Shown here: one piece after another, positions 16,630 to 54,745 of the stretch | Layout: each line of letters begins with the position of its first letter | How positions within the stretch are numbered: the first letter of the stretch is position 1 | DNA from: Elsinoe ampelina | Lineage: Eukaryota | Reading direction: 5' to 3' | Length of the DNA: 61,820 bases | NCBI GenBank assembly: GCA_010093995.1 | Contig: ML992502.1 | Coordinates: 1,520,635 to 1,582,454 of the forward strand | The notes under the pieces: model-generated | Seen by the model: only the letters and a program-made list of their open reading frames with translations | The model's database searches: none | Told to the model about the DNA's origin: nothing | Translations under genes and position numbers: made by a program

Positions 16630-16729
16630 GTTCTAATTACTCTCCTATAGTTATAATCTATTAGACTCTATAGACAACTAGAACTCTATTAGTAAGGCGC
16701 CTATACCTTATATAAACAATATTATAGAG

Positions 16730-30056: not shown

Positions 30057-30415
30057 TTTTAGATAGAAAAGAAGAACGTAAGGAGAAATAATACATTATA
30101 AAATCCCTAACGCTAGAGAGCTACGTTAGACTACTTCTAAGTAACTAACTTAGTTTAACTTAGTTTAATATAATTCCCTAGTTACCTCTAGGTCCTACTT
30201 AGAAGTAATATAGTTTTTCCCTATAGAAATCTAAAAACCTCTAATGCGTAGTAAATAGAGATAGCCTAATAGTAGATAGCATACTATATGTATCTCTTAT
30301 CTTAGTTTAAGCGTTTCTTAGTTTATAAAGTAATTAGTTCGTGTCTACTCTATAAGCTTAATAATATTAATTATAGAAACATTCTATTACGTAGCTTACT
30401 TTATAGTATATATTA

Positions 30416-32457
30416 TATATGTCTATATATTATATAGACCTTGTAATTCGTCTACTATGTCTAGAAAATTATATAAGGTCGCTAGAATATATATATTGCT
30501 TTATATTCTACCTAACGCTACTCTTAATAATAATATATATACTATCTTCTTATAATTCTATATTCTTATCTCTTAGTTCTATAAAAGTATCTCTATCTAG
30601 TAGATGTCTATTCTCCTTAATGTCTAAGATACTACTACTATACTTTAGGCCGATTTAGTACTATAAGACTAGTTTATATAGTAGGCCTCTAAACTTCTTA
30701 CGTATAAAGGATAAAAAGTTTATTTACGTCTATATATCTAAGAAATCCTTCTACTATACCTCGACCGCTAGTAAATTGCTATTAAGTTATCTATCTTAGA
30801 ATAGTATAGTACACGTATAATTAAGTAGCCCGGGTAGATGTTGCTATTAAGTCTATTAATCCTTATATATACTAACTACGACCTAACTTAGTTTAGTAGT
30901 AGTTAAAGTTATAACAAGGTTACTATCTATATTAGGTATCTACGCTAGCTATACTTCTATCGTAGGAGTTGCTATAGAGCGATTAAGTACTTCGCTTCTA
31001 TATACGAACTAAGTAGTACCTTAATGCGCTATAATAAGGCGTTTAGCCTTAATTAGACACTCTTCTCGATCTATTAGTATTAAACTTAAGAAGCTAATAG
31101 AAGAATTAAGCTTACCTCTTAAAAGGTACTTAGTAGAAGCATTTTGTACTAGTGCTATATAATAGCTATTACCTCTGCTATTAGGCCTGTTATTATATAC
31201 CGGACTTCTCTATAAGTTAGTTTAAAGTTAAGTAGACCGAACTAAAACGAGAAGGTATATATATACCTTTCCCTTATATCTTCTCTATCTAATAGTCCCT
31301 CTATAGTATTAGTATAAAGAGATATATTTAACACTACTACTACAATAGTAAGTCTATTTCTCTTAATGCACTTAGCGAAGCTAAGTTTTAGCTAACAAAG
31401 GATAAGAACCTATCTTAGGCTAATCTACGCTAGAAAGTTATTCTAAATGCTTAGTTAAATATAATTAAGTTCTAAAGGTTCTATACGTTTAAATACTAGT
31501 ATTCCCTTAGGTAAGTAGAACTTAACCCCGTCTACTTACTTAACTAAGAGTATATAAATCATTACTAGAAGGGAGGAAATAAGAAAGAGTATTAGTTTGT
31601 TAAAGTAATAGTAAGTACTAGCTATTATAGCTAAGCCTATATATCTGACAAAGGCTACTTAGAAGGCTTTATATATTAAAGGACTCCTAAAGCGTTTACG
31701 CTACTATATATAAGTAATTAATTAATAAGTACATCTAGCGCGTACTAAATTACTATCCTTGTATTAGTACTTTCTTTTCTCTAGTAGCCTACGTGCCTAA
31801 TTCGGTAGCTCGCTATTCTCTAGCCCCTTAGCTAGCTATTCGTAGTAGAGTATCTTACTTACTATTTGTGTAATATTGTTATAACTATAGTAGAGTGCCT
31901 CTCGGAGCTATATATATATTAATAAGTAATTAGCTTTAGCTACGTAACCTATTTTACTAGCTATAACTATAGAAGAGTATTTGCCTATAGTTCTCTATAG
32001 ATAAAGTACTAGTAGCTAGTTACAGACCGAGCGCTAGTACTATATAATTCGTAGGAGTAGCTATTAATTGTCTAATGTTAGTAATATTATATTATAATCT
32101 ACTTTAATAGCTATACTTATACGTAGATTGTTATATACTACCTCGAAAATATTAAGATACTAGTTTAGTACGTTCTATTACTTCTGCTTTACTATCTTAA
32201 CCGGCATAGAGACTAATATTAGACTATTCTTGTTAGGTTATAGCTCTCTTAAACTCGGATCGAGAGTAGTAATGTCTAATTTATACCTTCTCCTTTGTCT
32301 TTAATGTTATATTTATAGCCTACGTAGTTAGCTTAGTCTCTCTTAATACTAAAGCCTTACTCTACTTTATCCTAGTTAAAATAACTTAAATTATTATCTT
32401 CGGAATACTTATTAGTCTTATAGTCTAAGCTATATAAGCACTAACGTGCCTAAGATA
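30416..32457 (-). pseudogene. Cargo gene A, unknown ~650-aa Cys/Trp-rich protein (RIP-damaged)
   Basis: Long minus-strand frame whose stops are nearly all TAG/TAA revertible to Trp/Gln/Arg. Starts MSQARWCSCGSDCE.. on de-RIP. No family recognised. Confidence 0.5.
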
Positions 32458-33199
32458 TCTTAGTTCGTAATAGTTCTAATAAAGAGATATATAGGTATAA
32501 GAGAGTTAGTAAGGTAGGCCGAAATAATATATACTATAAGGGGGATAGATAGTTATCTTATATATATTATAGTAACTTAGCATTAGTTTAAGTTAGATAA
32601 TAGCTTAGTTTAGTATTTAGAGTGCATAACTTTCTTCTAATTAGAATTAGTTATATCTATCTATACCCTATAGTAATCTTAACTAGTAAGAGTATTAAAT
32701 TAGACTTGTAGCTAGGTCTAACTCGTAGAGTGCTAATTACTAGAAGCTAAACTAAAAAAGAAAGCTACTTAAACTTACTTAGACTAAATACTTAAACTAA
32801 ATATAGTATTTATTATTAGGTTAAGCAATAATTAGAGTAGAAATATATAAAGAGAAATTACAAATTAAACTTAGACTAAGTAATTATATACTAATTCGAA
32901 AGACTATAGGAACTAGCTATTATATATATAGACAGGTAGTATAATTTATATAGTAGCTTCCTTATTAATTACATTAGTAGTCCCCTCTTTATCGAGTAGT
33001 ATATCTTCTAAGTGCTAAAAGCATTAATTGCTTACTATCTCGCTATCTAAGGTGTTTAAATAAGATATACTAGATAGAGTAGCTTATCTTCTACTAATTA
33101 TATTACAATAGGGGGCAGGTGTTAATTAGCTATTAGTAACTATATATAGTAATAGTAGAGTAGCACTATTAGTGTAGTGTTATATATCCTTATTTAATC

Positions 33200-34640
33200 T
33201 AAATAAGCCTCTTAATACTCTACTAGTAAGGTCTATAAAGGCAATACTAAACGCGTAAAAAGCTTTACTAATATACTTCCTAAGTATATTATTCTCTTAC
33301 TAGAGTTATTTAATTAAGCTTACGTTCTTCTCCGCTATTAATTGTAATTAGCCTACTTCCTACTAAACAAGTATAATGTCTTCTTCTAGGAGTTGCTATC
33401 TATTAAGCTATTTAGGCTACTAGGTCCTATGTTGCTTTTACTAGCTACTAACGTAATTATACTCTTCTCTGTATATATATAGTAGAGAGCTTCTAATTTA
33501 AGCCTCTAGCTAGTTAGGGAGACTATTAGAAGACTATACTTTAACACCTAAATAGATAAGAGAAGCCTATATACTTAATCCTATAGTCTAGATGTTAGCC
33601 GCTAGAGAAACAAGGTTAGTATAATTAATATCTATACTTAGAAGCCTAGCTAAAAGATACTAATAGACCTAATAGATTAATAGTAGAAGGATAGATAAGT
33701 AATTCTAAAGGGCAATTTAGTTAAAAGGCAAGAAAGGATAAAGCATAGTAAACGAACTAAAACTCTAAAGTTTAGTAGTAGGTATAGCTTAGCATAGATT
33801 ACTCTACTACTTTTTAGTTTAACTTAGTCTACTACTAGACTATTCTTCTTTATACTTGCTTCGGCTAGATACTTTCCTTAATCTTATTGCCTTATAAGGA
33901 TATAAAGAGGTAAACTATATAATATCTTAGATAAGATAATAGCCTTAAACTAGATAGTATTCTCTATTATAGCGAAATATAGTATTCTATTATCCTTCTA
34001 ACCTATAACATTGCTTTACTTGTTATATATATAGTAGTCTATTATAATTAATATTACTCTTAGCTAATTAAACTTAATATCTATATCCTTCTTAGATATA
34101 GTAGTTATAGCTTTATAACGTATAAGTAGAAGATCTCTAATCGAGTAGACAGGATATATCTCTCTATCCTTACGAACTACTAATAGTATATTGTCTAGTT
34201 AATTAGAGAGTAAAGGCGCTTATAATTATAATTAGTAATTTAAGGATTTATTCGAGGTAAGCGTATTAGTACTATTCTATACTTCTCTAGGCTTATATAA
34301 TCTTAAGTGTAACTATACCCGCTAATGTCTAAAATTAGTACTTATCTTATAGACGAGAGTATAGAAGGTAGCTTAACTATTGCTACTCTCTAAGAGCTCT
34401 ATCGTATATCGAAATATATACCGAATGTTATTACTATCTAGTGCTACTAGAAGTACCTTCTTCTCTAACTTTCTCCTATTAGAAATCGACCTAAATATTC
34501 TTCTAACTATGCCTTTACCTATTATAATATCCTCTAAAAGACTATATAAGTCTCTATAGCCTTTATTATCGAGGGTAAGAGCTTACTTAATAGCTTTAAT
34601 TAAGCATATCGCTAGTTAATAAGAAGTAGATATAGATATA
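33200..34640 (-). pseudogene. Cargo gene B, unknown (RIP-damaged, probably spliced)
   Basis: Codon-structured minus-strand sequence with intron-like AT tracts. No motif recognised; limits approximate. Confidence 0.35.
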
Positions 34641-34865
34641 GCTATAGAGGAGAGAAGAGAGAGAGTAGAAGAGCAGTAGTATAGATAGCAATTCGGTGTA
34701 AGTGTTACTCGCGATAGATAAGCCTTAGATCTTAGTTTACTTATAAGAGAGGCATACTAGAATTATACTTAGTTATAATTAGTTAGCCTAAACTAATACT
34801 TGTAGAACTATAAAGTTTAACGCGCTAAACTTTATCTCTTCTTAGTTTTATTATATGCTTATTAC

Positions 34866-35666
34866 GTAGTAATATAACTATATTATAAATACGATTTGTA
34901 ATAATGCCTTAGTTCGTACTCTCTACTTATACTAACCTAAATATAGGTGTTAGTGTCCCTAGTATAACCTTTTCTCTCCTCTCTATCTAACCTCGACAAT
35001 AGCTAGCTATCTATTATAATAGATTCCTACGCCTAGTACACTATAATTATTAATTATTATATATACTATAGCGACTCTAATATTTACTTCTACCTCGCTA
35101 TTACTACTACTTCTAATAGTATCCTCTATACTAGCTATGTTATATTTGTAGAATTAACTACTACTAGTACCTAGTAGTTACGCTAGAGCAAATCTATTAT
35201 AGTATACCTCTCTATCTTGCCTACTACGCCGCTATAGGCTTAAGGGTATATAAGGAGACTCCGATATTTCTTTTCTTCTCCCCGCTAGCGCTACTCTTTA
35301 TAGCTTCCTTTACACTAGCTATGTATTATTAGTAGAATTAGCTACTATCTCTACCTAGTAGCTATGACTAACTAAATCTATTACGGAGTATCTCCTAATC
35401 TTATAGATAGCGCTACTAAAGGTTCTAGTGTATAAAAAGAGAGTAGAGGAGCTAGCGTCTACTAGAAATTACCTGCCTTATAGTATAAGAATGTTAAGGG
35501 GAGAATTATAAAGGAATAACTAGTATAACAAAGGGGAAGAGATAAAGGCATATCGCGGGCAAAGATATATCTACTACCTTCTACTAGATAGTAGCTTACT
35601 ATAGAGAGCGTTATAGGCGGAGCTATATTAGTAGTATTCTCTTTTATAATTGCTTTTATAGTAGAG
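34866..35666 (+). repeat. ~800-bp direct repeat R1, copy 1 (copy 2 at 42142-42931)
   Basis: cttatactaacctaaatatagg...ccctagtataaccttttctctcctctctatctaacc... is shared, differing mainly by transitions. Contains an internal ~190-bp-period partial repeat (agaattaactact...cctagtagttacg...aaatctatta). Confidence 0.93.
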
Positions 35667-36424
35667 TTTTATTATTAGTAGTGCTTTATTATAACTTTCT
35701 TACGTTAGTGATATACTTCTTTCTATATAGATTATATACCTGTCGCTTTAATCTCTCTCCTTTAACTAGTAAACAAAATCTCCTTGTCTAATATATATAA
35801 GTATACTATATATCTTTCTTTATTCTTTGTTATTTATCTTATCTCCTATCTACTATAAAGATATTAAGGTTGTTACTTTATACAATAATACTCTTTATTA
35901 AATAGTCCACTAGCTATTTAGAGCATATATAACTTTGTATATAGTACTAATATACAAGTGTTTAGTATAGTTAATTACTTTAATACTAATTTTCTACGAT
36001 AATTAGTACTTATAATATCCTCTAATAGCTATATTTTGTTTGCTTACCTAATTTATACTCTATAATATTTGTTAGTAGTAAACTAACTTATTTACTTTTA
36101 GTTCTAGTATTAACCTAATATTAGTAATTATTATATATTACTATTAGTATATATAAAATATAGACTTAGTTAACTTAGTTTACTTTTAGGTCGAGGCCCG
36201 AACTAGATCTTAGTTATAAGTATACTACTTACTTTAGTATACTATCTTAAATACAAATTTTATTATATTTAAAAAGTTACTACTTACTTTCTACGTAGCA
36301 TTTTAATATTATACTAGGTAGTAGGTATTTATAATTACTACTATTTACTCTATAGCGCTTAACTTACTATACTTAGTTCCTAGCTATATAATCTTAACTC
36401 CTCTAACCTTACCTACCTTATATA

Positions 36425-37759
36425 ATGTCTTTACTAGTAGATATTCTTACACTTATTAAATATATATAATAGTACTATACTGCCGAAGATAAAGAAGCTA
36501 AAGGTCGCTACTAAACCTATAGAAAAGATTCTACTTAATAACCTTATACTAGCTCTTATTAAGAATACGCTTTATAATAATAATATTAGTAAGAAATCTA
36601 TCTAATTCTTCTTTAATTAGGACAACTAGTAATACTCTACTATATTTATAAGGATAAAGGAAATAATCTTAAAAGTCTTTATAGAATCTAATATTAAAAT
36701 TAAGAAATAAGATAGAAGTAAGTTATATAATCCTAAGGTGCTTAAAGCACGCCTTAAAATTAAAACTAGGCTACTAAATAGCACGCCTAACAATTTCTAG
36801 CTCTTTATTAACTAACTAGATTAGAAAGATCTAGACTAGTTTAAGGAGAACTTATAGACTATAGTTAATATTAACAAGATAAAAGCTATATAGCGATTAT
36901 TCTAAAATACTATACAATTAATAAGGGTAAATCTCCTATTAGTTAAAAGGGAAAGAATAACATTACTAGGCAAAGAAGGCACCTAGAGTCTATATCCTTT
37001 AGCTACCTCGTCTATATAGATACTAATACTCTTCTAAGTAAGAACACTATCCTCGGAGAGATATATAACTTATATAAAGACAAGTAATAAGAGATTAGAT
37101 TTATATATATAGCCTTATTATAGAATATTTAGCTTTAACTAGGGGCTAGTATTTAATTATATCTAGATTAATATTAAATTTGCTACGATCTAGATTATAG
37201 AGGTTATCGAAGTAGATACTATCTCGTATCTAATATTAAGAAAGAATATCTACGTCTATAACTTAAGAAAGCCTAGTACTAGCAAGGACAAGAATTGTTA
37301 CGTTAATTACTATATTAGTAAGCTTAGACAGATCCTTAATATTAGAGGTAATTACCTCTAACTCTACTAGCTTAATACGTATAACTCTATATAAGTCTTT
37401 ACTATTAAAGACTCTTTCGATCTAGATGCTACTATTACTAAGTATATTATAACTCTTATCCCTAGTACCTATAAGATCTTTCTTTATCTTACTCCTTCTA
37501 TAGTATCTATTAAAGATCTTCTTAACTTTATATAGAGTAAGTTTACCTCTTCTCTATTTATCTATATATACTAACACTTATAGATAACTCTTATCGATAT
37601 TATAGTAGCTAGCAACTACTTCCTATAGCTAAGGCTACTATAGAAGAGGACTCGGAAGTGTTTCTTACTTCTAAGAAGCTTTACTTTATAGATATTAACA
37701 CTAATAAGAAGTATAAAGGAGATTAGTAGAAAAAGAATATTATAATATAGAACGTTTAA
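36425..37759 (+). pseudogene. Cargo gene X1, unknown family, paralog of X2
   Basis: ATG at 36425. De-RIP FFDQDNQQYSAVFMRTKE (~36607) and FDPDAAIA..I.TL.PG...IFLHLTPS (~37415-37500) match X2 at protein level. Confidence 0.65.
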
Positions 37760-37989
37760 TACCTATAATAGTAATTAAACTACTAAAGGTAAGAGTAGTA
37801 ATACTACTATGTTTTATTTGCTATTATGTTATTTATAAAACTATTTAGTTCTTAACTAATAAAGTTTTATTTAGCTTGTTCTACCTCTAAGAGGCTATAG
37901 CCCCTATAAATCCTATAATTTCTATTATTGTTATTAGAAGTAAACTTACTTAATAGTTCTATAACTATAGCTAGATAGATTCTAACTAA

Positions 37990-39420
37990 CCTAGCGACTT
38001 AGTTTAGGGTATAGTCTTACTTCGTATAGTTTTAGAAAAATATAGCTTCTTCTCCTCTACTAGAAGAATATAGCCTATTTAGACTATAGTATATACCGCC
38101 GAGGCACTATCTATATTCCTATTACTTTAATAGCTTAAAGAATATTATATAAGCTACTATACACCTAAGGCTAGCTATCTATCTAAATAAATATAATCTC
38201 TCGAAGCTCTTTAATACCTCTTCTAAGTTTTACTTTATTACTAGTAACTTTCTATAGCCTGCCTAGTATACTATAACGTATTAGAGTAAAGAGAGTAAGT
38301 CCGAGAAGATAACAACTTACTTCTACTAATATAAGATTAATATTAGTATTAAAAAAGTAATATGTTCTTAATATTATTAACAATAGAAACGAAGTAATAC
38401 TACTATAGATATAATAGACTAGGTCGTTTAATAATAAGTAAAACAAGTTAGTAGGATAGAATCTTATCCCCTATTATAGTAGAAGTAATAGTATAAGTTT
38501 TAGTTCTATACCGAACTTAGAGTTAACTAAATTAAATAAGAATAGTATAGTACTATAAAGGAGCACGTAGGCGTTACTACTAATATAGTTATTAGGCTTT
38601 ACCCTTATATACTAGCGAGGTTTATACGTAGTATACTTAGAGGTTAATAAAGAATTCCCGCTAACTATTATTAGTTCTAGCTACTACCTTCTAATAAATA
38701 GTAGAGACACTTTAGGTTAGGTTATGCCTCTTAACTAAGTATAAACTCTAGTTAGTTTAGTTAGCCTAAAACTAGAAATACGCTTATTTTATATTAGGGT
38801 AGATAAGTCCTTTAAGGGAATACTATAACGCCTAGCTATCTTATACCTCTCCTCGTTAGGTAATTACTACTCGGTATTAGTATAGCTCTACTAACTACAT
38901 ACATAGGTTTAGTATTAAGCTTAATATTTAATATAAAGTTAATTATACTAAGAGAAAGGGATTAGATATTTACTACTTAATAAAGACAGCTTCGATATAG
39001 TAGAGCTAGTCTCTATCTATAGGCAGTAAAGACGTACCTATTATAAAGAATAAGAGAGAATAAACTAGACATAATTTAACTTAATATTACTATATAATAT
39101 AATAAGAGGCAGCTCTCTACCTATACGAAGGTAATATAAGAATAGTTAAAGTCTATTATAGCTCCCTTTTCGTAAATATAATAGTCACTTCTCGTTTCTA
39201 GTTTAAAATCTTTATATTAGTCCCTATATAGATAGCTAAACTTCTATTTATTCCTCTCGACATGTATCTTAACCTAATTATAAAACATCTAGTAGCTATA
39301 TCTACTTTTATGTCTTATTAGGTTTAAGATATTCTTAACTAAGACTTTAAAGTTTTAATTAAGGATAGATATCTTATTTCTTTAGTAGTACTATATATAT
39401 AAATTACTTCGTATATAAGG
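37990..39420 (-). pseudogene. Cargo gene C, unknown (RIP-damaged)
   Basis: Minus-strand codon-structured region. The 64-aa ORF at 38252-38446 looks like a surviving stop-free piece of it. Strand and limits uncertain. Confidence 0.35.
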
Positions 39421-39599
39421 GAGTATACCTTAACTATAATTATAAAGACGCTATATAAGAGAGAGTAGTACGGAATAATATTTATATTTAATAAGTAAAA
39501 GGAACCTAGAGGTAATTATACTAGATATTGTTATAAGCTTACTTTATTTACTTTGCTACTCTACTAGTATAGGAAGAGTAATAACATTAACTAACATTA

Positions 39600-41282
39600 T
39601 AGCAGGGGCTATAGATACTCCTTAGACTTTATACCCCGAGCCGAAGTAGTAGATAAGTATATAGCTAGCGCTATACTAGATTAGGAATATAGAGTCTTTA
39701 TGTTATTATCTCTAAGATTATAGAACGGAAAGCCTATAGTTAGAAGACTAAGAGGTAGTAAAGAATTATTTGTGCGTATAACTCTATAGCGCTAGTAGTA
39801 GCTATAGTAGTTAGTTTAACTTAGTTAGTTTAGTTCGGTTGTTACTAATAAGAGAGCTATATCTATAATAACTTAAGAGAATTCCGAATAGCTAAGCTAT
39901 TAGGATTAGTAAGAGCACTAAAGTTGTTATTATTAATTATAAAGAGGAATTTATAGTAAGCTACGTAGGTATTATTAGAGTAGCTATATCGAAGTAAACT
40001 TACTTCGAGAAGGCTACGCTAGTTAGTTTATAACTAGAAATAGTATATAGTTCTATAACAAGTAGAGTACTAGTGCTTCTACCTTAATAGTGTAACTTCG
40101 CTTAATACAAAGTTAGTATATAGATCTAATTATTATAGTAGACTTCCGATAGTACCTTAGAGAATATAATATTCACTAGCGTAGATATAATAATAGTATT
40201 TATGCTTAAGCTAACTATACTATCCTATTAGCCGAAGAAGTAGATTAACTATAGCTATAATATACCAATGATAATATAGAAGGTTATATAAGATAATATA
40301 GCAAAGTAAACGAACTAAAAGCGTAGTTATTTAAACTAATAGAGAAGTAATAGCAAATTATTAGTTTATCCTTATTAAGATTAGTTAAGGAAACACTTAC
40401 AATTTTTACCTAAAAAGTACTAGTTTCAGTTTAGTAAACTAATTAACTACTCCTAACAGATTAACTATAGGCATAAACGACCTAACGTTATATAGCCGAG
40501 GTATCTTTATATACTACTATTGCTATTTTTTCGTAGAGGCTATTTATAACTAACTTATTATAATACTAGTAACAAGTTAAGACATAAGATAGTAAGAGCT
40601 ATAAATCGTTTACTAGCTAAAATTATTATACCTACGCGGCACTCTCTGTTTTATAATTGCTATAAAAGCCTCTACTAAGGACAATAGCGTAACAATAGCT
40701 AATTAAGTATAGTATTATTTAATATTGTCCTTAAGTAAGAGACAGCTAATAAACTCTATTACCTAGATATATTAGAGTAAACTCTATCTTAACGTGTCTA
40801 GTACTATAGCGTAGATACAATTTTAGCTTTAGTCTACTAATACTATATAATAGCTTAGTTCTATTAGCTCTACTACGAATTATAGTAAATAAGAACTAAA
40901 CTAAGTAACGAGGTAGAAATAATAGTCTATAGCTAGCATAGAGTGTCCTTCCCTCTTTACCTACTATATAGTATAGCATAGTAGATAATTCTCTTAGTCT
41001 CTTTACTAACCTTAACTCTTAATCTCTAGTACGTAGAACAGACAGTAATAGTAATAGTAGGCTTAATAGCGACATACACGAGGAAGAGAAGGGCATAGAT
41101 AAGATTATAATAGGAAGTATATATAAGAAAGAGTAAGTAATTATAGTAAGTATAACTAGTAGTATATCTATAAGGCAAAGTGCTAGGAGGTTATCCTTAT
41201 CTAGTAGAGCTATATCTAATTATACTACGTTTAAGATAGTAACTAGTATACTAGCTAGTAGTAAGGAGTTAGTAATAGACAT
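39600..41282 (-). pseudogene. Cargo gene Y1, unknown, Ser/Pro-rich N-terminus shared with Y2
   Basis: ATG at 41282 inside repeat R2. De-RIP MS.TNSSPPASMPV...SSPPSPSPSVPRARGRE. Downstream extent uncertain. Confidence 0.4.
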
Positions 41283-41340
41283 AGTTTATTCTTAGTTCGC
41301 GTTAACTAATCTTATCTAGATCTCTCTAAGTCTATAATAC
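40830..41340 (+). repeat. ~510-bp direct repeat R2, copy 1 (copy 2 at 48282-48792)
   Basis: agtctatagctagca.agagtgtcctt...gacatacacgaggaagagaagggcatagataag...taagtctataata is shared between the copies. Confidence 0.93.
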
Positions 41341-41717
41341 ATTCTTTGCCCCGAGTGATTAATAAGATATAGCTTAGCTAGAGACTCTCGGCTTAGCGCT
41401 CTAACGTTTAATAAAAGGTAAGCTACTAACTTAGATAGATAATTTTAATTCGAGTTAGATCGTTATAGTAGAAGCGCCTTCTAGTAGAATACACTTGCCG
41501 CGGACTACTAGCCTCTATATAATGTTCTAATAAATCTACTTCTACCTACGTAAGAGTACTAAAGATATATCTAAGTTACATATGTAAAGGCTATAGTAGT
41601 CTAACTAATAGTAAAATAGTATTTACTAGTAGGAAGCTTACTTAGCTTAAATTTAGTAGTATAAATTGTTGCTTTACTCTATCTCTAGCATATTATATAT
41701 AGTAGTAGTAGAGAGTA

Positions 41718-42015
41718 GTCGGCAGGGGACAGCTAGTAGTTTATTATATTAAACTAATAATTTCTTAGTTCTCTCTCTCGAAGTTTAAAGATAACTTAAA
41801 ATTTTAACCTAACTATAGCTGGTAGAGGATAGCTAGTAGTTTATTATATCGAACTAATAATTTCTTAATTCTCTCTCTTAAAGTTTAAAGATAACTTAAA
41901 ATTTTAACCTAACTATAGCCGGCAGGGGATAGCTAGTAGTTTATTACGTCGAACTAATAATGTCTTAGTTCTCTCTCTTAAAGTTTAAGAATAATCTAAA
42001 ATTTTGACCTAACTA
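41718..42015 (+). repeat. Tandem repeat, 3 x 100 bp
   Basis: Units start at 41718, 41818 and 41918 (g.cggcagggga.agctagtagtttatta...aaaattttaacctaacta). Confidence 0.96.
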
Positions 42016-42931: not shown

Positions 42932-43754
42932 CCTAGTAGAGCTAGGTAAGAAATAAAGCATATTTGTAATTATATAGAATATACTATTAACTACTCGTTC
43001 TGCAGAATATATAGCCTTTACTCTACTCTACTACTTAATTCCGTATATAGTAATTATAAAGTCTAGATAATTAGATAGTAGTATATTACTTTCTTTATTC
43101 CTTTACTAGTATCTATAAGCTATACTATACACTATATATACTATGCCCTTTATTCTGCTATAGGCTACTAACTACCTTCTATTTGTGTTCTATTACTATT
43201 GTCCTTCGTATATAAATACTAGTTTCGCTATTAAAATATTGTTTAATTATTTTATATTAACTACTACTATATTTCCTCTATTTATTAGACTATTATCCCT
43301 TAAGATCTACCCTAAATACGACAATAGTATCCTTAGTATATATAGCATATAAAATAAAAGGTAACTAAGTATATAGACTATAGTTACTCTTAGTTTAGTA
43401 TCTAAACTAAGTAATTTACTATTATATATATACTATATCTAGTATACTACTATATACTTAGTTTAGAGCCTAACCTAAGTTAACTAAATTTAGGTTACTT
43501 CTCTCCTTAATTACTTTAGTTTACCTTTGTTTATACTCTCTTATATATAAATAAATAACTTATATAGCTCTCTAGTATTTCTTTAACCTCTTTAACTTCT
43601 CTTTTAAGCGCTCTTTACTTAAATATCTCCTCTTTAGTTAAGTTTTAGTTAGGCATATATTATAAAGTATATAGACCTACTATGTTAATAAATTCTCTCC
43701 TTAATTCTTCTAAACTTATAAATATATAATACCTTTATAAGATCTCTTCTTTAA

Positions 43755-45100
43755 TATCTACTATACCTACTTAACCTATTTACTAAATATTATTCTAAGC
43801 TTTATTTATAGTATATACTAAGCTTATAGACATATATAATATGTCTAAGAATTAGCTTAATAGCGCTAGTATAGCTACTAATAATATTCCGCTTTATAAA
43901 AGACCTCCTATAGAAATTTAAGTATAGCTTAATAAAAATCTTAAGATTAAGAGATTCTTCCTTAAATTCTTTAACTAGGATAACAACTAGTATACTACTA
44001 TATATATAAGAGCGTAAGAAGAATATAAGAATACCTATATAGTTCTAGGACTTAAATATAAGAAACCTTAGGATAGTAACGTTAATATAACTATAATTAT
44101 AAATAATATTAAAACTTCCCTATAATACTCTTAGAATAACTATACGAAGATCTTCTTTTAAAGACTATACTATTAAGACTAAGACTAGTTTAAGAGGAAC
44201 ATTAGAAACTATAATAATATATCTAGTTATAATATTATTAAAGATTTTGTCCTTACTATTAAGGTATAAAAGCTTAGGAATAAGAAGAATTAGACTAAAG
44301 TAGATAAGAAGGCTTATTCTAAGAAGCACATTAGAAAGTGCCCCTCTACTACCTAGTCTAATAGTAGACTCTCTAAAAGATTAAAGACTTCTATACTTAG
44401 TAGCGGACTTATAGGTATAGATATTAATTACTATACTAGTTAGCCTATACGTTAGTAGTAAATACTAGAGGACATGTCTTATCTAGTCTAGAGTATTATT
44501 AATAAAACTATTATTAACTTTATAATTGTTAAGTAATTAAATATTAGCCCGGGCGTAATTATAAAGAGAGAATATTTATATTATCTATAGGTGTTTAGTC
44601 TAAGAATTTTAAGGTTATATCCGGGGGATTATAATCTAAACGTATATAGCCTTAATAACATTAGGCTATTCCTAAAGGAGAAGAAGTTAGTTAGTAATAA
44701 TATTATTCTTATATAGATAGATTATATAGAGCTATATAATATTCTACCTATCTTAGACAACTACGACCTATATACTACTATAATTAACTATGTTAACTCC
44801 CTAGTTAAAGGTAGTAATATAATCTTTATCTATCTTACGCCTAGTACGGATCTAGTTAAGAAGCTCTCTAAAGAAGTACTTTATAAGTTTAATACTTAGT
44901 TCGACTTAGGTATATACTAATATACTTAGTTAACTCTCTTTAGTATTATAATAGTTAAAAGCTATTAACTCTAGTCTAGAAGGAAGAGAAAGAGAAACCT
45001 CTAGCTCCTCTATCTCTAGCTAAGCGCCTACTACCGCGTAAATCTACTTCTAAGAAGTAACCTAGCTCTCTACTACCTAACAAGAATAATACTACTATTA
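43755..45100 (+). pseudogene. Cargo gene X2, paralog of X1, possibly fused to the downstream SNF2 domain
   Basis: De-RIP FFDQDNNQYAAMYIRAQE (~43967) and YDPYAAMIDYVNSLVEGGNVIFIHLTPG (~44762-44845). Intron-like segment after HLTP at the same place as in X1. Runs through a Pro/Lys-rich linker toward the helicase. Confidence 0.6.
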
Positions 45101-47845
45101 ACAATTGTCCTACTTAGGTAATAGAAGACAAATACTATAAGTAATGCTAAAATAGCAATTAGTATCCCTTTATAATTATACCTAGTAAGAAGTAAGTAAG
45201 GTACTATATTCCGTTAGTCTCTAAGACACTATCTATACCTATTCTAGCGCTTATAACTTGTATATTTAATAAGACTCTTAGTAGCTTAAACTTCGTTAAA
45301 CTTTATACTATAAACAATAACGACAATAAGTAAACTAGTAATAATCTAGCTAACTAAAGCTTTATCTCTATAGGCACTAGAATCAATTACTAGTCTAAAG
45401 AGTTCTAGAAGAGAGTCTATAACTTTATAAGCTTTAAGAAAGACATCTACTTACTAAACGCTAGTATATAGTGTTTTAGTTAGAATAAGAAGTATCTAGT
45501 TAAGGTAGTATAGATGTACTTAGCGCTTATTATACTTAAGAAATACCTCGAAGGCTACCTAGTATTTATATTTATATATAAGATAGAATTTAGAAAGACT
45601 CCGATAGAACTCTTCTTTCTCTTACTAATTTAAAACTTAAATAAAAAGGTTATCTAGGATACTAACTATACTACTATATCTAAGAATAAGTAGAGTAAGT
45701 ACTAGAAGGTAAAGACACTAGTTAATAAGCTATAGCTAGATATTGCTTCTATAGATACTATTAGCTATAATCTAATTATTAGCGGATTAAACGTAATAAA
45801 ATAGTAGGTGTAGAAGATATAAAAGTTTATACCTAATATAAAGGTTGTTCTATACTAGGGAAGAATATTCTAAGCTATATAAGAAGATAAGTATAGCGAT
45901 ATATATAATATAGATACTTTAATTTGCAAAGAGAATCTATCTATAGGCTACCGCTAATAGGAGTCTTAGCTAATAGATAAGTCTAGTAAGCCTATTAACA
46001 CTATTATAGTCTTATAACTAGTCGATATATATAAGTAACACCCCCGGACCTTATAGATAAATAATTAGTTCTTCTTTACTACTTATAACACTATAATCTA
46101 CTACTTCCTTAGTAAGAATAATATAAATACTAAGGATTAGAACTTTGTTCCTAAGGGATAAGAGAGAAAGCTAAGGTCTACGCCTATAAACTAGGCCGCT
46201 ATTATCTTTAATAAGTTCTATTAGGTTACTAGCTAGAAGATATAGACCTAGTGTTATTTAGGAATACTACTAGAGAGGCCTTTTATACTAGGTATAAGTA
46301 GGACACTATTTATTAAGTGCTTAAACATAGTAGCGTTCTTAATAGTAGCTATATATAAGGACTTTAGATTAGAAAAGCTTAATATAAATAGAAGTAAAAT
46401 AGGAGAATTTAATAAGAACTATATCTATAAATCTAAGTAGGAGCTAACTAAGGCTAAGAATAATAAATATTAAGTAACACTAAAGATAACACTAGATAAG
46501 ACTTAATAAGCTATTGCTAATAAGCTTAACTTCTAAATAGTATTAGACTATGCCTTTGTAATTAATAAATAGTATAAGGTAAATAACAACTCTAGTAAGT
46601 TTAATAAAAAGAGAAGTATATAGTTTATAGAAGAGATTATAGCAACGGTCGGTAAATAGAGTACTATCCTTATAAATATTCTTATTAAGATAAATATAAA
46701 CTATATCTAGAAACCTTTCGATACTACTCCCGGTCTACTAGCTATTAGAGTTCTACTATATTCTACCTTTAACTTAGAGATTACTATCGAGGATAAGTAT
46801 CTTTATAGTCTTATAAATATATAGAAGAAGATCGAACAGGATATAGATAAGAGTATATAAGAGGTAATTAATAGGCAAAAGGACAAATCTAATAAGCCTA
46901 AAGTAACATTAGAGATAATCCTTAATAAGAAGACTAAGGAGCAAATACTAAACCTAGTTACGCTACTACTACTTTTCTCTATATTTCTTGCTCTTATAGA
47001 TATATTCTAGAATAATCCCGTAGTTATAGAAGAGTTTAGCAACTTTACTATTAAGTTTGCTTACGAAATTATATATAACTCCTTAGAGATAGCGCTATAG
47101 TAGTATATAGACAAGATCTACGCTAGTTCTTAGATAAAGGTCCTTTATAGTGTTATTTCTAAGATTATTAAGTAGAACGTCTCCTATTCGAAGGAGCTAA
47201 AGAGATAAGTAATTATCTATATATTTACACTATTAGTACTAGTAGTTACTACGATAGTTAGTTTAGTCTATTTAGTCTATTTAGGTTATTACTAATAAGA
47301 GTATAGTATCTAAAATAGCTCGAGAAGTACCTAGACAGCAAAGCAATTAGGATTAATAAGGATACTAATATAGTTGTTGTCTACTATAGAATAACATCTA
47401 TACCTGCCTATATAGACATTATTAACATAGCTATGTCTAATAATACGTTTATTAAACCTAATAGGCCGGAAGGCTTAAGGATCTTAATTACCTAGAGTAG
47501 AGCTATTAAGACTAGTCTTAATCTAAACTACTTCGATACTATAATCTTACTCGATATAGCGTTAGTATTATAATCCGTCCTTTAGTATCTAGCTTAGGTC
47601 TATAGAAATATTAAGTCTTAGAAAGCTAACTATATAGAGGCGTTTATAATAAAGCTAATAGCTTTGTTCTATAGGCCTCTAGAATAGCTTAATAGTAGAT
47701 AGAGTAGGCTATCGATAATATAAAAGGTCATTTATAAGGAAATAGAGAAGTAGAGGGCAGAGATCTAGAAACTTTAATAAGCTATAGCAAAGAAGAATAT
47801 AATTATTATAGATAATAATTAAGATTACTAGATAATAGTCTAACT
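45100..47845 (+). pseudogene. SNF2-family (SF2) helicase/ATPase cargo gene, RIP-inactivated
   Basis: Ordered de-RIP motifs: Walker A IF(A)HEMGFGKT (~45568-45600), Ia I.SGLNV..QW..K..KF.P..KVV.Y.G (~45775-45860), Walker B I.FDEFH (~46201-46221, ttt aat aag ttc tat), V/VI ETGLNL..FDT.ILLD......LQHLARVHR (~47505-47607). Confidence 0.82.
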
Positions 47846-48281
47846 ATATTACCTAAAAATATAATTCTTTAGTTTAGTAGACTAATTTAGTTCCCTATAT
47901 ATGTTAAACTATCTTTTAGATTACCTAATATAATATAGTATCTAAACGTTTCTTACTTTCTACTATCGCTAAAATTTAGCTAGCTAACTCTAACTACAAA
48001 TTTAGATCTTAAGTAATAAATATAGATATACTAAGGCAAATTAGTAAATGCTTAGCCTACGGGAAGATTATATAATCTAGTAAAGGCCTTATCTAATATC
48101 TACTATATTACTAGAGGAGAGAGCTACTAATAAGTAATATAGCGTAAGTCTTACTAGAGTAATATAGCAATAGACATCTACGTAGAGATAATACTAGTAA
48201 TAATCCTTACTTATTTAATAAGGGAAAGTACTTACTATCTAATAAAGGCTAACGAGGTAGTATTACTAGTAATGTACGACA

Positions 48282-48792
48282 TAGTCTACTAATACTAAAT
48301 AACCTACTAGTCTACTTTACTCCGCTACAAATAATAGTAACTAAGAATTAAACTAAACACTAGAGTAGAAACGAAAGTCTATAGCTAGCAGAGAGTGTCC
48401 TTTCCCCTTTGCCTACTATATAGTATAGTATAGTAGATAATCCTCTTAGTCTCTTTACTAACCTTAACTCTTAACCTCTAGCACATAGAATAGATAGTAA
48501 TAGTAATAGTAGGCTTAATAGCGACATACACGAGGAAGAGAAGGGCATAGATAAGGTTATAATAGAAGGCATACACGAGAAAGAGTAAGTAATTATAGTA
48601 AGTACAACTAGTAGCATATCTATAGGGCGAAGTACTAGGAGGTTATCCTTATCTAGTAGAGCTATATCTAATTATACTACGTTTAAGATAGCTACTAGTA
48701 TACTAGCTAGTAGCGAAGAGTTAGTTATAGACATAGTTTATTCTTAGTTTACGTTAACTAATCTTGTCTAGATCTCCTTAAGTCTATAATAT
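48282..48792 (+). repeat. Direct repeat R2, copy 2 (contains minus-strand ATG at 48734 of paralog Y2)
   Basis: Matches 40830-41340. Confidence 0.93.
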
Positions 48793-48859
48793 ATATACTA
48801 ACACTAACGATAAACTAAATTATAATTAGTTAGGCGAGACTTAACTAAAGTAAGCCTTT

Positions 48860-51565
48860 ATTAGTAGTATAGACGTAGGTCTTGCCTAGTAGCTTATAAA
48901 GGAGAAACTTAGTAGAGCTATAATTACGTAATTACTTAAAGATCTATATATATAACCTCTAGTAGAGAGCCTTAGTTAGTAAACTACGAATAAACTAACA
49001 AAGAAGATAGAGAATTTAGATACAGGCGGGGGTATTAATAGCTAGTAGACCTTAAGCTTTATACTAAATACTAATTGTAGGTCTAAAAGATATACGTTCT
49101 AGTATCTAGATATTCTTATAGCAATACGCTTCTTGCTTAGCTATTATAGTTTCGTAGTAGACATAGACTATAGCCTATATAGAGTCTTTATAGAAGCTGT
49201 TAAGAGTAAGCTACTATAACAAGTATACACTAAAATAGTAAGTAGCGACTAGTAGTAGAACACACAAAAGCGACTTAGGATACTAGGGGCTACTATTATC
49301 CTATTAATCGTCGTAAGTAATTAGACCTAAGTAATAAACTATTAAGGAGATCTTATAGTATATACTATCTATCTATTATTAGGTAACCTAAAGGTAGAAG
49401 CACGTAATAGCAACTACTAGCTAGGGTAGTTACTAATTAGCTTACTTCCTATTATTAAAGATAGTAGTAATATTATTAAGGAGAAGACCTACTACACTTA
49501 TATAAAGAAAATCTTTAACGCCGTTATTAATTGCTACTTAAGAGAAGGTAAAATAATCTCCTATATAAATAGAAAGAGGTAGAGGTACTTCTCTATACTT
49601 ACTACTATATCTACGAATTACGCTAAATAGGTTACTATAACTAGTGTAAAGTCACTATATTATTATATAAGTTACCTAATTGGTAAGGACGAAAGAGAGG
49701 ACCTAGTAGTTACTATACTATTCTAAACTTACTACTCTACGTAGCAATAATAGCGCTTATAGAGAGAAGTATATAAGAGTTAGTAGCGAGGTAAGAAGAT
49801 AGATATAAGCTCTTAGGTTTATATAGTTAGTTACTTTACATAGGATCTTCTATATACTAATATTTACTACGTAATAGTACTAGATATTCTATACTAACTT
49901 CTTAAAGGCGTTTTAATATATATCTTATACTAGACTTAAAAATTGCTCTAGAATTTAATGCCTATATAGAGATTACTATAGTATATAAAGGCTAGAGAGA
50001 CTATGTAGCGAATAGACTACTAGTGCTTAGTAAAGAAGATTATACTTAATATTATTAACAAGTATTTCGATAGTATACTAGTGTTTCCTAGCATCCGATA
50101 CTTCTTATACTACTTAGCTATTAAGCAATAGACAGGTTAAGAGTAGAAGAGTATTATACGCTAGATACTTCTAGTATTTATACTACTACTTAAGGAGGTT
50201 AAGGCACCTTAAGCTATTAAGTTTATACGCGTACTAGTTAACTTTATATTACTAGTGAACTATAAGACCTATAATAACGATATACTCTAGTATATTAACC
50301 TTGCGCTCTTTAGGATAAACAAGTATAAAGAAACCTTTTAGGCCTATTATAGTAATAGGAAAGAAGAGAGTAACTTTAACTTTCCGAAATAGTACTTAAT
50401 AATATATTTTTTAAAGGCTATCTATAATTTCGGAGTAGTTACTAGCCTCGATTCTAATTATTTAAAGCATAATTATATATACTTTATTAAGGACGCCTTT
50501 AAACTTATAAATAAGAAGGCTAGATAGAAAGACTAGATTACTACTTATAACACTAAACTAGTAAACATGTTAGTAGTATTTAATAACCCCTCGAAGTTAG
50601 TTAGGCTATTAGCTACTAAACTAATTAAGATCTAGCGTACGCTAGTTAGCGTAAGTAATATAGTAAACGTCACTTCTTAGTTTAGCTAGCCTAGCACTAA
50701 GGAGAAGGCTATATAGCGTATAGTAAGAGAACTAGAGGCGCTTATTAATATACTACCTAGGCTATTACTATAGTAAGTAATAGCAGTGTTTGTCCGCGAG
50801 GCTTGTTAAGGTATAGCTAATATAGGCTCTAACTTAAGAACTAAATACTCTAATTAGTTTAATGCTAAACTAGATCCCGATAGACTCGAACTAGATTCTT
50901 CCTAGGTAAGTAACCTCTATATTAAGTTCTACTATTCTTTAAAGTATAGGAAACTATCCGACTATAATTCTAATAATTCTAATATAGACAAATAAGACTT
51001 TATCTAGTGTATAACTAAATAGTAAGAGATACGTAGCAATAAGAGGCAAGACTAGCTCTAGGTATAAGAATAGATAACAAATAACAAAGGCACTAACGGA
51101 GTATTACCTAATAGCCTATAAGGTAAGTTACTAGCTTATATTATATTTATAATAACTATAGAGGATAGCTTCTAGTCTAGTAGATCGGGCCGGCGTTAAC
51201 GCCTATACTACATAGGAGCGCTAGTAGATCTATATTAGCCTACTCGGCCGGATAGAGTAGCTAATTAAGAGTATAGTATAACACTAATTAAGCCTTAGAC
51301 AAATCAACGCACGCGAGCTAGACGAAATACTCTTACTAGTAGGCATATCTACTTTACCTTATAAATCTACTATAGTATCTATATTATACTAGTAGATAAA
51401 ATAAAGCTATATAGCTAGATATATATTAATAACATAGCCGACTTTAATATATATAATATGCTATAGAATAAGTTATAGAAGTCTAAATAGCTCTACCTAG
51501 CTAAGGCTTTAAAACGAGAGAGGTTAAGATCCCTAGGTATAGTTAGTAAGCGTAGTAGGCATTAA
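48860..51565 (+). pseudogene. Plavaka-family transposase (RIP-inactivated)
   Basis: De-RIP VYTEMASGDWWWNTQKRL..PGATIIPLIVASDQTQVTNHQGDL.AY.IYLSLGNL (~49223-49390), CADGKRRRCFPILAA...YAEQ (~49560-49630), PDILHQLLKGVL (~49880), FNFPKWHL..HF...I..FG...G.DS..SEH.H..FVKDAF..TNK (~50375-50515). These are the characteristic Plavaka motifs. Start approximate. Confidence 0.88.
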
Positions 51566-51899
51566 CAAAGCTAGAGTACTTCTTTTGTAGCTAGAACAAT
51601 TATCTCTTATATTAATAGCCTAACGCTTAGATATACTTAGGTTAACTACTAGACTATGTTAGGTAGGCAAGTTATAATAACTTCTATAAGTATTACTCTA
51701 ACTAGTTAGTTTATACCTATATATTATTAGGTTAGTCCCTAAACTATATAGGGTTCGCGGCCTAAGATGCTTTATATAGTTTTTATACTAAAGAGTTAGT
51801 TTATTCCTTTACTAATTATAATAGCTTAGGAAATTATAGCGAGGCGTTATAGAAGATAGTCTTTAAGATACTTAAGACATACCTTAAGTATTTAGCAAT

Positions 51900-53972
51900 A
51901 GTAGTAAAAGGCTTAGGTTAGTAAGTTATCTTTAGGTTAGTTTTACTAACGGAGTTAGTAGTCTAAGAGGAAAGTTTATTCTCTATAATAAGTTTACTAA
52001 TAAGACTCTAATATAGACGATAGTACTTTACTCTATTTACTATTATATCGTAGAGATCTACTCGATGCTACTAGAGTAGTTACTAAGGACTTATTCCTTT
52101 CTATCTAATAGATAAGATCTATAATAACACTAGCTTAGAAGACCTGCTAGGGAATATTCTTATTAATCTCTATATATATACTATACACAGGAAATAAGTT
52201 AAGAAAGAAGCTACTCTTTAGTATAGTAAGTAGCCTCTTCCTTGTCCTCTAAAGTCTCCTTTATATCTATGTAGGTTATAAGTATTTCCTTATAAGATTA
52301 TTAGTGTATAATATATATATAACAAATCCTGTCTATAAGATTATATACTAGATTATTCTACATGCGCTATTACTATAACTACTACTTAGTAGTAGTAATA
52401 GTAGAGTAGCGGGATATAGTAGGAAAAAGTGTTATTATATCTACCTCTAAGAGAGAGATACTCTCTTTCTCCTCTATACCTTTCTCCTTGCTCTCCGCTA
52501 TAGTAAGGTATACTATAACTAAAGCTACTACTACCGCTTCCTCCGTAACTACTATTACTTATATATAGCTATAACTACGAGTTATTACTAGAAGCTTAGT
52601 ACGCGTTAGAGTGACTTTATCTTTAATATATAGCAATAAAGTGCTACGATCTTAACCTAGACACTGCCTTTATTACCTCTCTAACGACTACCGTAACTAG
52701 CGCTAAGAGCTAGTAAGATAAGAAGTATACTACCTCTACCTTCGCTAGTGTCTATAGCTATGCTAGTATTAAGCTTAGTAAGGTAGAGGAGAAGAGTAAG
52801 AAGCTAAAGGAGCCTCTTATTATTACTAATTACCTCCTTGCTAATAACCTTATAGATAGATAGTTAGAGTAGATCTTAAACTTTCTAGAAAGAGTATTTA
52901 CTTCTCCGCTATAATTGTCTTTAAGCTGTCGTTTAGACTACTATATCCTTAGTACTATCTCCGGGGCTACTTAGATACTATACTAATGTCTATTAGATCT
53001 TACTTTTCTAGGTAGTCTTTTATAGCTTTAGAATTATCCTTCTAGTAGGTATACTATTCCGTGTAAGTAGACGAGGAATTAGCTTAGCCTAAACTAAATG
53101 TCTATTACATTTCCTATACCTGTCTATATTAGTATTAATTTTCTTAGAATAGGCTATAGCCTTACTACTATAGCTACTATTAACGTAGTATATCTAGCTC
53201 TTATTATTATTCTTTTCCTACGTTACTAACGACTTCTAAGTACTAGAATAGGTCTATAGGTATTTATACTTAATGTTGTAACTATACTTAGCTATAATAA
53301 TTAAGTCCTTCTTAGGAAAAGCTTCCTTACATCTATAAGCCTAAGTTATAAACGCTCCTTTATAAGCTTGTTTTATATTGTTAATAATATAGGCCACTAG
53401 ATAGTAGAATGTCACGAACTATCTAAATATAGTCTACGCTAGTAGTCTAAGCTAAGCTAAGAACGAGGTAGTTCTACTTCTATAGTAGTATAGTACTAAG
53501 GTAAGAGTTGGAGAAGATATGTCTTATAGATAATAAAGTACGATTAGATAGTATTACAAAGGCTAGCCTTAGCAATACTAGTGTTCGCTATCTAGACAAG
53601 GTCGACTATAGTACTTATATAAGGTAAGGACTGTTCCTATATACATGTGTTCTTTACCGTGTGCTCTATATACTCTATATGCTCCGTAGCGAGAGTCGGG
53701 GGCAATATAGAGTATACGTCTACTAGTAACCTACGCGCTCTATAGTTTTAGGGGTAGAGCCGCTAGAGAAGATAGAGAACTAGGTAAATGTTAGGCTAGG
53801 TCACGTAATAACCTTGGTAGTTTAATTAGTCCTAACGTCCCTATGCTCTAGCTATTCTACTAGTTCGTAACATAGAACTTATAGGCTATAGGGCAATATA
53901 GGCGCTTTTTGTTAGTATTAACCTTTGTTGCTAGCTATATAGTTACGCGAAAGTGCTTATCTTTAGAGACAT
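51900..53972 (-). pseudogene. Unknown gene convergent with the Plavaka transposase, interrupted by a solo LTR
   Basis: ATG at 53972. Codon-structured minus strand with a Gly/Arg-rich tract (~52470-52590) on de-RIP. No family recognised. Confidence 0.4.
53410..53872 (-). mobile_element. Solo LTR of the Gypsy-3 family (463 bp)
   Basis: Reverse complement of 21481-21943, with tgtcacgaac...gttcgtaaca ends. 5-bp TSD TAGAA at 53405-53409 and 53873-53877. Confidence 0.96.
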
Positions 53973-54267
53973 CTAACACCTTAATAGACAACTAAGTAGA
54001 GACAATAAAATAGAGTTAGAATAAGTATATATTAGTTTAGAGTTTTATGTTATAAGCTAGAGAACAAGGCGTATAATGTCTACTTTCCTATTATAGTAAA
54101 AGCGCTTCTATACCGAGCTCTAATAATGTAAAGTATATACTTCTTCTCTATCTAGTAGATAAGATCTATAATAATACTAGCTTAGAGGGCCCTCTCTAGA
54201 AGATGCTTGTTAATTTCTATATCTATTCTAGTTATAGTAAGTAGAGCATTTATCTAATCTAAGGCAC

Positions 54268-54340
54268 GTATAGTACGTTTAACTAAAATTAGGTAGGTAT
54301 AGTACATTTAACTAAATTTAGGTAGGTGTAGTGCGTTTAT
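54268..54340 (+). repeat. Subterminal tandem repeat (~2.5 x 29 bp) near the right TIR of the giant element
   Basis: gtatagtacgtttaactaaaattaggtag / gtatagtacatttaactaaatttaggtag / gtgtagtgcgttta. Confidence 0.85.
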
Positions 54341-54745
54341 AGCGACCTAATATAGTTAAACTTAGTTTAATATAGAGAAACCTAATATTCTAACTCTCTA
54401 CGCTTAGGACTTTCGTAATGTAAGATTATATAGACTAACCTCTAGTATACTATATCCTTATTATAGCTACTAGTATAAGGCGTATGTCTCCTATAATACC
54501 GCTAGGAATTCTAAGGAAAGTAATATTATTGCTACCGATTAGCTTTAGCGCTATAGCGACTAGATAAACGCCCCTCTAGGAACTAGATTCCTAGGACTAC
54601 TACTACTAGACATTATACGAGATATATATAAGACCTTTATAAAAATACTTTAACTATCTTACGCCTACGTTACCTCCGAATAACACTATATATTATACAC
54701 TTCTAGTCGAGAGCTAAGAATAGCTCTCCTAGAGGAGGAGACAAT

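Follow-up and report, generated by a model that had tools for sequence, protein, structure and literature searches.

The window analysed here is a stretch of 61,820 nt of the Elsinoe ampelina genome (assembly GCA_010093995.1, contig ML992502.1, positions 1,520,635 to 1,582,454, forward strand), and all coordinates refer to this window. Between positions 30092 and 54422 it contains, from left to right, a terminal inverted repeat (TIR), a left arm, the remnant of a conserved accessory open reading frame (ORF), two modules of about 6.5 kb each (E1 and E2, with a putative SNF2-family ATPase gene in E2) separated by a spacer, a Plavaka-type DDE transposase gene, and a right arm followed by a solo long terminal repeat (LTR), a subterminal tandem array and the second TIR (Table 1). 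We consider it probable that this whole stretch is one copy of a very large DDE transposon of the Plavaka lineage (related to EnSpm/CACTA) with accessory genes, which was killed by repeat-induced point mutation (RIP) and had inserted in the 3' untranslated part of a Gypsy element. A preliminary description of this DNA had likewise proposed a single TIR-bounded element of Plavaka/CACTA type, and the TIR, the transposase and a gene order matching that of an unmutated relative (locus L004, described below) all speak for it.

Table 1. Features of the element at 30092–54422 and of its flanks (window coordinates).
Feature	Position	Strand	Remarks
Left flank dinucleotide AA	30090..30091		candidate 2-bp target site duplication (TSD) with AG at 54423-54424
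Left terminal inverted repeat	30092..30161	+	starts TACATTA
Left arm	30162..33892		no Pfam family, no repeat elsewhere in window, no significant RIP-aware match
Conserved accessory ORF remnant, homologue of L004 329-aa ORF (ORF329)	33893..34603	-	phmmer and RIP-aware alignment
Module E1	34865..41342	+	head 34865-35668 (804 bp), diverged SNF2-like interior, tail 40830-41342 (513 bp)
Spacer, 798 bp	41343..42140		100-bp tandem repeat, three copies, at 41716-42015
Module E2	42141..48794	+	head 42141-42943 (804 bp), SNF2-family remnant, tail 48282-48794 (513 bp)
SNF2-family ATPase gene remnant	45013..47831	+	aligned part; the complete gene would span about 43850-47830
Plavaka-type DDE transposase gene	48965..51529	+	single frame; RIP-aware alignment; PF18759
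Right arm	51530..53404		no Pfam family
Secondary insertion, solo LTR 53410-53872 with TSD TAGAA	53405..53877	-	family of LTR retrotransposon 21481-28504
Subterminal 29-bp tandem array, 3.2 copies	54247..54339		83 bp inside right end
Right terminal inverted repeat	54353..54422	-	finishes TAATGTA
3' LTR of host Gypsy element	54746..54933	+	partner 16443-16630; purine tract just 5'

The G+C content is about 30% across the whole window, and every 4-kb tile has RIP indices of 1.8–2.1 (TpA/ApT) and 0.16–0.44 ((CpA+TpG)/(ApC+GpT)), in agreement with the uniform RIP damage noted earlier. The ORF listing for 29–56 kb holds no ORF of at least 100 amino acids (aa), and coding and non-coding frames were inseparable in stop-density maps, where the true transposase frame itself has about 8% stops. 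To look past RIP, the window was compared with itself with A/G and C/T collapsed; its repeats are then 97–100% identical with sharp ends, and therefore the copies differ almost solely by transitions. Pfam scans were run over 30001–54600 in six frames with stops read as X. In the RIP-aware scoring of protein queries, each window codon was compared with all codons that RIP could have changed into it, with a penalty for each reversion and with an offset chosen to keep scores negative on average; an initial scheme was dropped, as its score rose with query length. As a control, the transposase scored 392 ungapped, against 52.7±4.9 in shuffles.

Plavaka was the sole family found in the six-frame Pfam scan of 30001–54600 (PF18759, E = 1.4e-19, profile positions 4–317 of 325), and nothing was found in any frame of 30001–48300. 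The Plavaka identity of the transposase thus stands as first described; its position was corrected, as the gene lies 2.9 kb from the right end and not at the end itself. The six-frame scans revealed no tyrosine-recombinase domain, in agreement with the earlier distinction from tyrosine-recombinase Starships. With tblastn, a 905-aa relative (P0004) aligns over aa 43–892 in one frame at 49070–51553 (E = 1e-54), and the window holds one transposase copy only. A search of 1.84 billion representative sequences with the transposase (HMMER, phmmer) gave 470 matches at E ≤ 1e-3, the best at 2.4e-69; those relatives that carry a name belong to Polychaeton citri and Aureobasidium pullulans, both Dothideomycetes. 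The gene now carries 71 in-frame stops in 855 codons. Among 123 columns that are invariant in seven homologues, 60 are identical in the window, 52 are recoverable by C>T/G>A reversal, 10 are incompatible and one is a gap, while shifted controls gave 3–7 identical and 8–20 recoverable columns (15–26 in total, against 112 of 123 in the real register). Because these 112 columns are either identical or RIP-compatible, in contrast to the controls, the transposase was a normal member of its family before it was destroyed, essentially by RIP. Among columns that may correspond to published Plavaka motifs, those of C255 and C258 now read TAT/TAC, and those of H302, H326 and H335 read TAT/TAC/TAT, all of which are revertible to Cys or His; the H311 column is CTT, which is not RIP-compatible.

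Both ends of the element were found where they had been placed. The 29 bp at 30092–30120 match the reverse complement of 54394–54422 at 22 positions, and the in-register, ungapped extension gives 45 of 70 identical positions, or 54 of 70 with transitions counted. Random inverted pairs from the window (200,000) have a mean of 20.2, a standard deviation (sd) of 4.1 and a maximum of 40 of 70, so that the observed match lies about 6 sd above them, and none reaches 22/29. When offsets of ±300 bp around both ends were tried, this register was the best, with one unrelated match at 21/29, and a search of the whole window found no further TIR copy. Both termini read TA..TA today, and CA..TG results if a C>T/G>A RIP change is assumed at each end, so that TACATTA..TAATGTA would become CACATTA..TAATGTG. 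The two flanking dinucleotides are one transition apart and match given one G>A RIP change, for which the chance probability is about 1/4; a 3-bp TSD was excluded (TAA vs AGA). The subterminal repeats reported at the right end are also present, namely the 29-bp array and a 105-bp direct repeat (52094–52198 and 54141–54245).

As suggested in the preliminary description, unmutated versions were sought. Scanning metagenome contigs with the transposase alignment gave five loci (L001–L005) with a G+C fraction of 0.46–0.53 and no RIP signature; no TIR-like sequence was found in any of these five intact relatives. In L004, the transposase is immediately preceded by a same-strand ORF of 1335 aa, which matches Helicase_C (3.3e-8) and SNF2-rel_dom (4.5e-5, just below the Pfam cut-off), its sole match among solved structures being Rad54-like (6.9e-4), and a 329-aa ORF (ORF329, at 1016–2002) lies farther upstream on the opposite strand. 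L001 and L003 likewise have pieces homologous to the SNF2 ORF of L004 upstream of their transposase, so that a SNF2 gene occupies this position in three of the five loci; L002 has just 1.2 kb of upstream DNA. In L003 the SNF2-like gene (379–3135) is in two ORFs (379–1302 and 1783–3135), possibly due to an intron or to decay. L004 and L002 also share a short ORF that immediately precedes the transposase match (8371–8901 in L004, 859–996 in L002; 52% over 46 aa); it is a possible N-terminal exon of the transposase and has no significant counterpart in the window.

The counterparts of the two L004 genes were recognised in the window by RIP-aware alignment. The L004 SNF2 protein (aa 391–1166) aligns onto 45013–47250 with a gapped score of 243.2, above stricter nulls that never exceeded 119: RIPped DNA from beyond the element, in 60 frame-tiles, scored 70.5±12.6 (maximum 118), and the six-frame maximum of 30 shuffles was 85.5±11.4 (maximum 119). 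Without gaps, two colinear segments in the same frame of E2 are found, aa 518–587 at 45403–45612 (99.5) and aa 799–848 at 46201–46350 (107.5), and the helicase-C piece of L001 (aa 95–196) aligns onto 47475–47831 with a score of 76.5; by eye, the translation of this last stretch resembles SNF2 motifs V–VI. Conventional searches gave nothing comparable: Pfam on the inferred SNF2 frames of the window found no family even at E ≤ 10, plain tblastn of the L003 and L004 ORFs against the window found no match at E ≤ 1, and a hidden Markov model (HMM) of four SNF2 sequences reached a best E of 2.2 in the window. The SNF2 ATPase of the preliminary description is thus upheld indirectly, by the RIP-aware score. 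For ORF329, phmmer without filters matches 34322–34597 on the minus strand (E = 7.5e-9), and aa 58–303 align onto the full remnant with a RIP-aware score of 117, against 46.1±6.4 in shuffles. Homologous-protein searches with the L004 SNF2 protein and with ORF329 each retrieved the query only, that for 43652–44575 (minus strand) of the window retrieved none, and the leads for ORF329 in a protein atlas were all below 0.9.

In a separate part of the window, at 3031–4215 (plus strand), aa 391–771 of the L004 SNF2 protein align with a score of 118.2, at the top of the real-DNA null; this stretch has no Pfam match and no DNA similarity to E2, and may be a chance match or a very old second helicase-like remnant.

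The gene order ORF329-like (minus) / SNF2 (plus) / transposase (plus) is common to the window (33.9–51.5 kb) and the unmutated L004. The multi-gene "cargo" is a conserved accessory set and not captured host genes; in place of the roughly seven other degenerate genes that had been suggested, what could be placed is one more conserved ORF plus another, weaker module of SNF2-like type.

Copy number was approached with contigs of 150–450 bp from two runs of one sample, perhaps the window's own source; of the words sampled from 46000–55900, fractions of 0.58 and 0.53 occur in these runs. At a likeness of at least 80%, 14,569 and 10,587 contig pieces were placed on the 20 kb of 34700–54699. In one run (X1), 3595, 4391, 5068 and 1515 pieces fall in the likeness bands of at least 99%, 95–99%, 90–95% and below 90%, and the differences comprise 1,525 of the transition type and 17 transversions. 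The summed depth per 667-bp bin is 7,200–12,900, with about 150–200 for single listed pieces, bearing in mind that contig depth is not copy number. Two contig joints omit exactly 468 bp, i.e., the solo LTR plus one TSD, and represent copies without it, and other joints tie the LTR edge to places elsewhere in the element (53872>43446, 53853>47152). The contigs of both runs show transition differences, and among them are some without the solo LTR; the family was therefore multicopy, as had been proposed. Our reading of these contigs is that there may be dozens of independently mutated copies, some lacking this LTR and some with LTRs elsewhere. If a repeat-rich region had instead multiplied chiefly through segmental duplication, with TIRs that mark just an old insertion, many RIP-mutated copies would also result, since RIP requires duplication only and the long-range structure of the other copies is not visible in contigs; we hold such duplication to be very improbable, as the contigs that tie the LTR edge to other places in the element and those without the LTR point to dispersed, independently evolving copies, and the transposase belonged to its family as a conserved member until RIP set in.

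Since the solo LTR has its own perfect 5-bp TSD and is missing from other copies, it is a later arrival. Its family is that of a structurally complete LTR retrotransposon at 21481–28504, whose LTRs measure 463 bp and have TG..CA ends, whose 3' LTR follows a purine tract and whose TSD is TTACT; this retrotransposon sits in the host Gypsy element, straight behind the chromodomain. In X1, the bin of the solo LTR (53376–54042) has a summed depth of 152,139, compared with about 11,000 around it (about 13 times), and the 463-bp LTR family is probably among the most abundant repeats of the genome.

The heads and the tails of E1 and E2 are 97–99% identical when transitions are ignored, with about 1% transversions, whereas a DNA alignment of the interiors is near the random level; three colinear high-scoring segment pairs of 147, 75.6 and 63 bits nevertheless connect the interiors, against at most 41 bits in six real-DNA controls and 15 block shuffles. 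In E1, the SNF2 alignment at 37120–39363 scores 103, which is within the nulls, and it sits at the offset predicted by the E1/E2 DNA alignment. This score was rejected as standalone evidence, as it fails the six-frame-maximum and real-DNA nulls (maxima 119 and 118) after reaching a z of 5.4 against per-frame shuffles, and a six-frame blastp of E1 against E2 was not used because its matches were composition-driven and occurred on both strands. By the DNA comparisons E1 is a second module, paralogous to E2, and its own SNF2 alignment is suggestive. Inside the 804-bp heads, a unit of about 185 bp is repeated in tandem (35083–35199 and 35271–35383 in E1; 42379–42472 and 42563–42656 in E2).

One could ask whether the region is instead a nest of unrelated degenerate elements, with a TIR arising by chance or belonging to a small element that later transposons filled. 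The solo LTR did arrive secondarily, the transposase is the sole Pfam match, and the interleaved 804-bp and 513-bp direct-repeat pairs superficially resemble LTRs. As LTR pairs, however, they were rejected: besides being interleaved, they have no TG..CA ends, no primer binding site or polypurine tract, no TSD, and no reverse transcriptase or integrase, though the same Pfam method detects RVT_1 (4.6e-14), RNase H, integrase zinc-binding, SH3 and chromo domains in the adjacent Gypsy element. Since, in addition, the gene order over 33.9–51.5 kb equals that of the intact relative, and the summed depth is fairly even over 20 kb except for the far higher solo-LTR bin, we find a nest scarcely credible.

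A second possibility concerns the size of the original unit, which might have been about 16–17 kb (an ORF329-like gene, one SNF2 module and the transposase) and have later gained E1 and the spacer (34865–42140) when two diverged subfamilies recombined unequally or underwent conversion; 24 kb would then not be the original transposing size. In its favour, L004 has a single SNF2 gene between ORF329 and the transposase, the ends of E1 and E2 are near-identical with remotely related interiors, and the summed depth in X1 is lower over E1 (7,600–10,900) than over E2 and the transposase (11,000–12,900). On the other hand, this depth does not count copies, E1 is covered many-fold, which makes the form with two modules multicopy as well, and none of the contig joints listed leaves out a module, although with contigs this short that weighs neither way. 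We regard this smaller ancestor as unlikely, though clearly less so than a nest or segmental duplication.

For the single large Plavaka element, the following course of events is proposed. The transposase would have bound the TIRs and the subterminal repeats and moved the whole unit of about 23.9 kb with a 2-bp target duplication. The SNF2-like ATPase would have served as an accessory factor of the element, most likely by opening or remodelling chromatin, which could counter silencing or aid excision and repair. Amplification to dozens of copies would have followed, after which RIP mutated all of them. The earlier idea that the whole unit moved in one piece does not hold for its present form, as the solo LTR (53405–53877) came later and is absent from other copies; about 7.3 kb of the length corresponds to the second SNF2 module. 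A more far-reaching version, to which we give about an even chance, is that the element represents an undescribed ascomycete Plavaka lineage, nearest to Dothideomycete proteins, whose accessory module consisted of a highly divergent SNF2 ATPase (duplicated here) and a conserved ORF, which thereby carried its own chromatin remodeller against silencing or for excision and repair, and which reached dozens of copies of about 24 kb before RIP.

Several observations count against the reading as a single large Plavaka element. No second full copy was found end to end, and contigs of 150–450 bp are too short to connect the left arm with the modules and the transposase elsewhere; the two runs come from one sample, possibly the source of the window, and are not independent support. 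The SNF2 assignment depends on a custom RIP-aware scoring, with Pfam, tblastn and the small HMM all negative, and L005 (transposase 33% identical, 10 kb of upstream DNA) has no SNF2 gene. The candidate TSD is AA vs AG, the module heads and tails are near-identical next to remotely alike interiors of 5.2 kb, and no content could be assigned to roughly 5.6 kb of the two arms. Contig ends do not pile up at 54422 among the ends listed, a set that omits 706 further loose ends; as the contigs are short, this weighs neither way.

The presumed host of the insertion is delimited by a pair of 188-bp LTRs that are 100% identical with transitions ignored, and its pol domains lie at 16633–21480 with the chromodomain last (21346–21477). 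The LTR pair, the purine tract and the layout of pol are consistent with the insertion of the element in this Gypsy element, named Gypsy-2 in the preliminary description. The 5 bp beside the LTR pair, GCGTA (16438–16442) and AATAG (54933–54937), are mismatched even with transitions allowed; the two LTRs may come from recombined elements. Between the nested retrotransposon and the Plavaka insertion there is 1.58 kb (28510–30091) that lacks Pfam domains and is not repeated anywhere else in the window; as this is long for the region past the Gypsy chromodomain, it may hold another, unrecognised insertion. Farther to the left, a 203-bp repeat is present in three copies (8623–8825, 13675–13877 and, on the minus strand, 16149–16359), of which the direct copies are 5 kb apart and possibly the LTR pair of a small element, and the inverted one lies just before the host Gypsy LTR.

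Accessory genes are rare in eukaryotic DNA transposons, and those that are known (TET/JBP dioxygenases, methylase/SET proteins, the VANDAL anti-silencing factor) point to manipulation of host epigenetic defences. A SNF2-like ATPase beside a Plavaka transposase, in the window and in three of five relatives, would add a chromatin remodeller to this group, and the pair would provide concrete genes that can be tested in intact relatives. The finding further shows that the AT-rich, RIP-degraded parts of an ascomycete genome derive in part from DDE elements larger than 20 kb and not from Starships alone. In the literature search, no paper linking Plavaka with SNF2 was found (the sole co-mention was unrelated), though the original description of Plavaka lay outside this search and a prior mention is possible; by title or abstract, no paper on SNF2 with a CACTA-type transposase in fungi was found.

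According to the published account, Plavaka elements form an EnSpm-related group of the CMCT clade with CA..TG termini and TSDs of 2–5 bp, were reconstructed from Agaricomycotina only, and comprise PlavakaA (ends TGT..ACA) and PlavakaB (ends CATCA..TGATG), with TET/JBP genes in some families (PMC12730594). The Elsinoe element shares with them the Plavaka-domain transposase, the TIR-bounded cut-and-paste type, a possible 2-bp TSD and room for an extra gene. Its termini, both as they read today and after RIP reversal, match neither the PlavakaA nor the PlavakaB ends, its named transposase relatives are Dothideomycetes, and its accessory gene is SNF2-like, with no Tet_JBP match in the six frames of 30001–54600, where RIP lowers the sensitivity, or in the scanned ORFs of L003 and L004. 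Giant Plavaka elements of 17.4–19.1 kb, with accessory genes PAG1–3, dominate the genome of the red alga Bostrychia (bioRxiv 10.1101/2025.02.11.637652), and Chondrus EnSpm families of 16–20 kb with four to five ORFs are cited in PMC6431247. Like these giants, the element in the window is very large, with several accessory genes, internal tandem repeats, a high copy number and mostly degenerate copies; unlike them, it has a fungal host and was inactivated by RIP, and it carries a SNF2-like ATPase and an ORF329-like gene in place of the N6-methylase/SET and ParB-like/2OG oxygenase proteins. Neither a PAG2-type methylase (PF01555) nor a SET domain (PF00856) was found in six frames of 30001–54600 or in 10 scanned ORFs of L003 and L004, with sensitivity limited by RIP. 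With canonical CACTA/EnSpm elements it has in common the CAC termini (here after RIP reversal), the subterminal arrays and a DDE transposase of the same clade, whereas the 3-bp TSD is excluded and no TnpA-type second gene was recognised in it. Starships are similarly large, carry extra genes beyond the mobilising enzyme and live in fungal hosts (Pezizomycotina), but they are mobilised by a tyrosine-recombinase captain and span tens to hundreds of kb, compared with a DDE transposase, TIR ends and 24 kb here. Therefore, since giant Plavaka/EnSpm elements with extra ORFs are known in red algae and TET/JBP-carrying Plavaka elements in fungi, the architecture is not undescribed, although the preliminary description knew of no account of it, and the element is a variant and not a new class; it is set apart by its host lineage, its termini and its SNF2-like accessory module.

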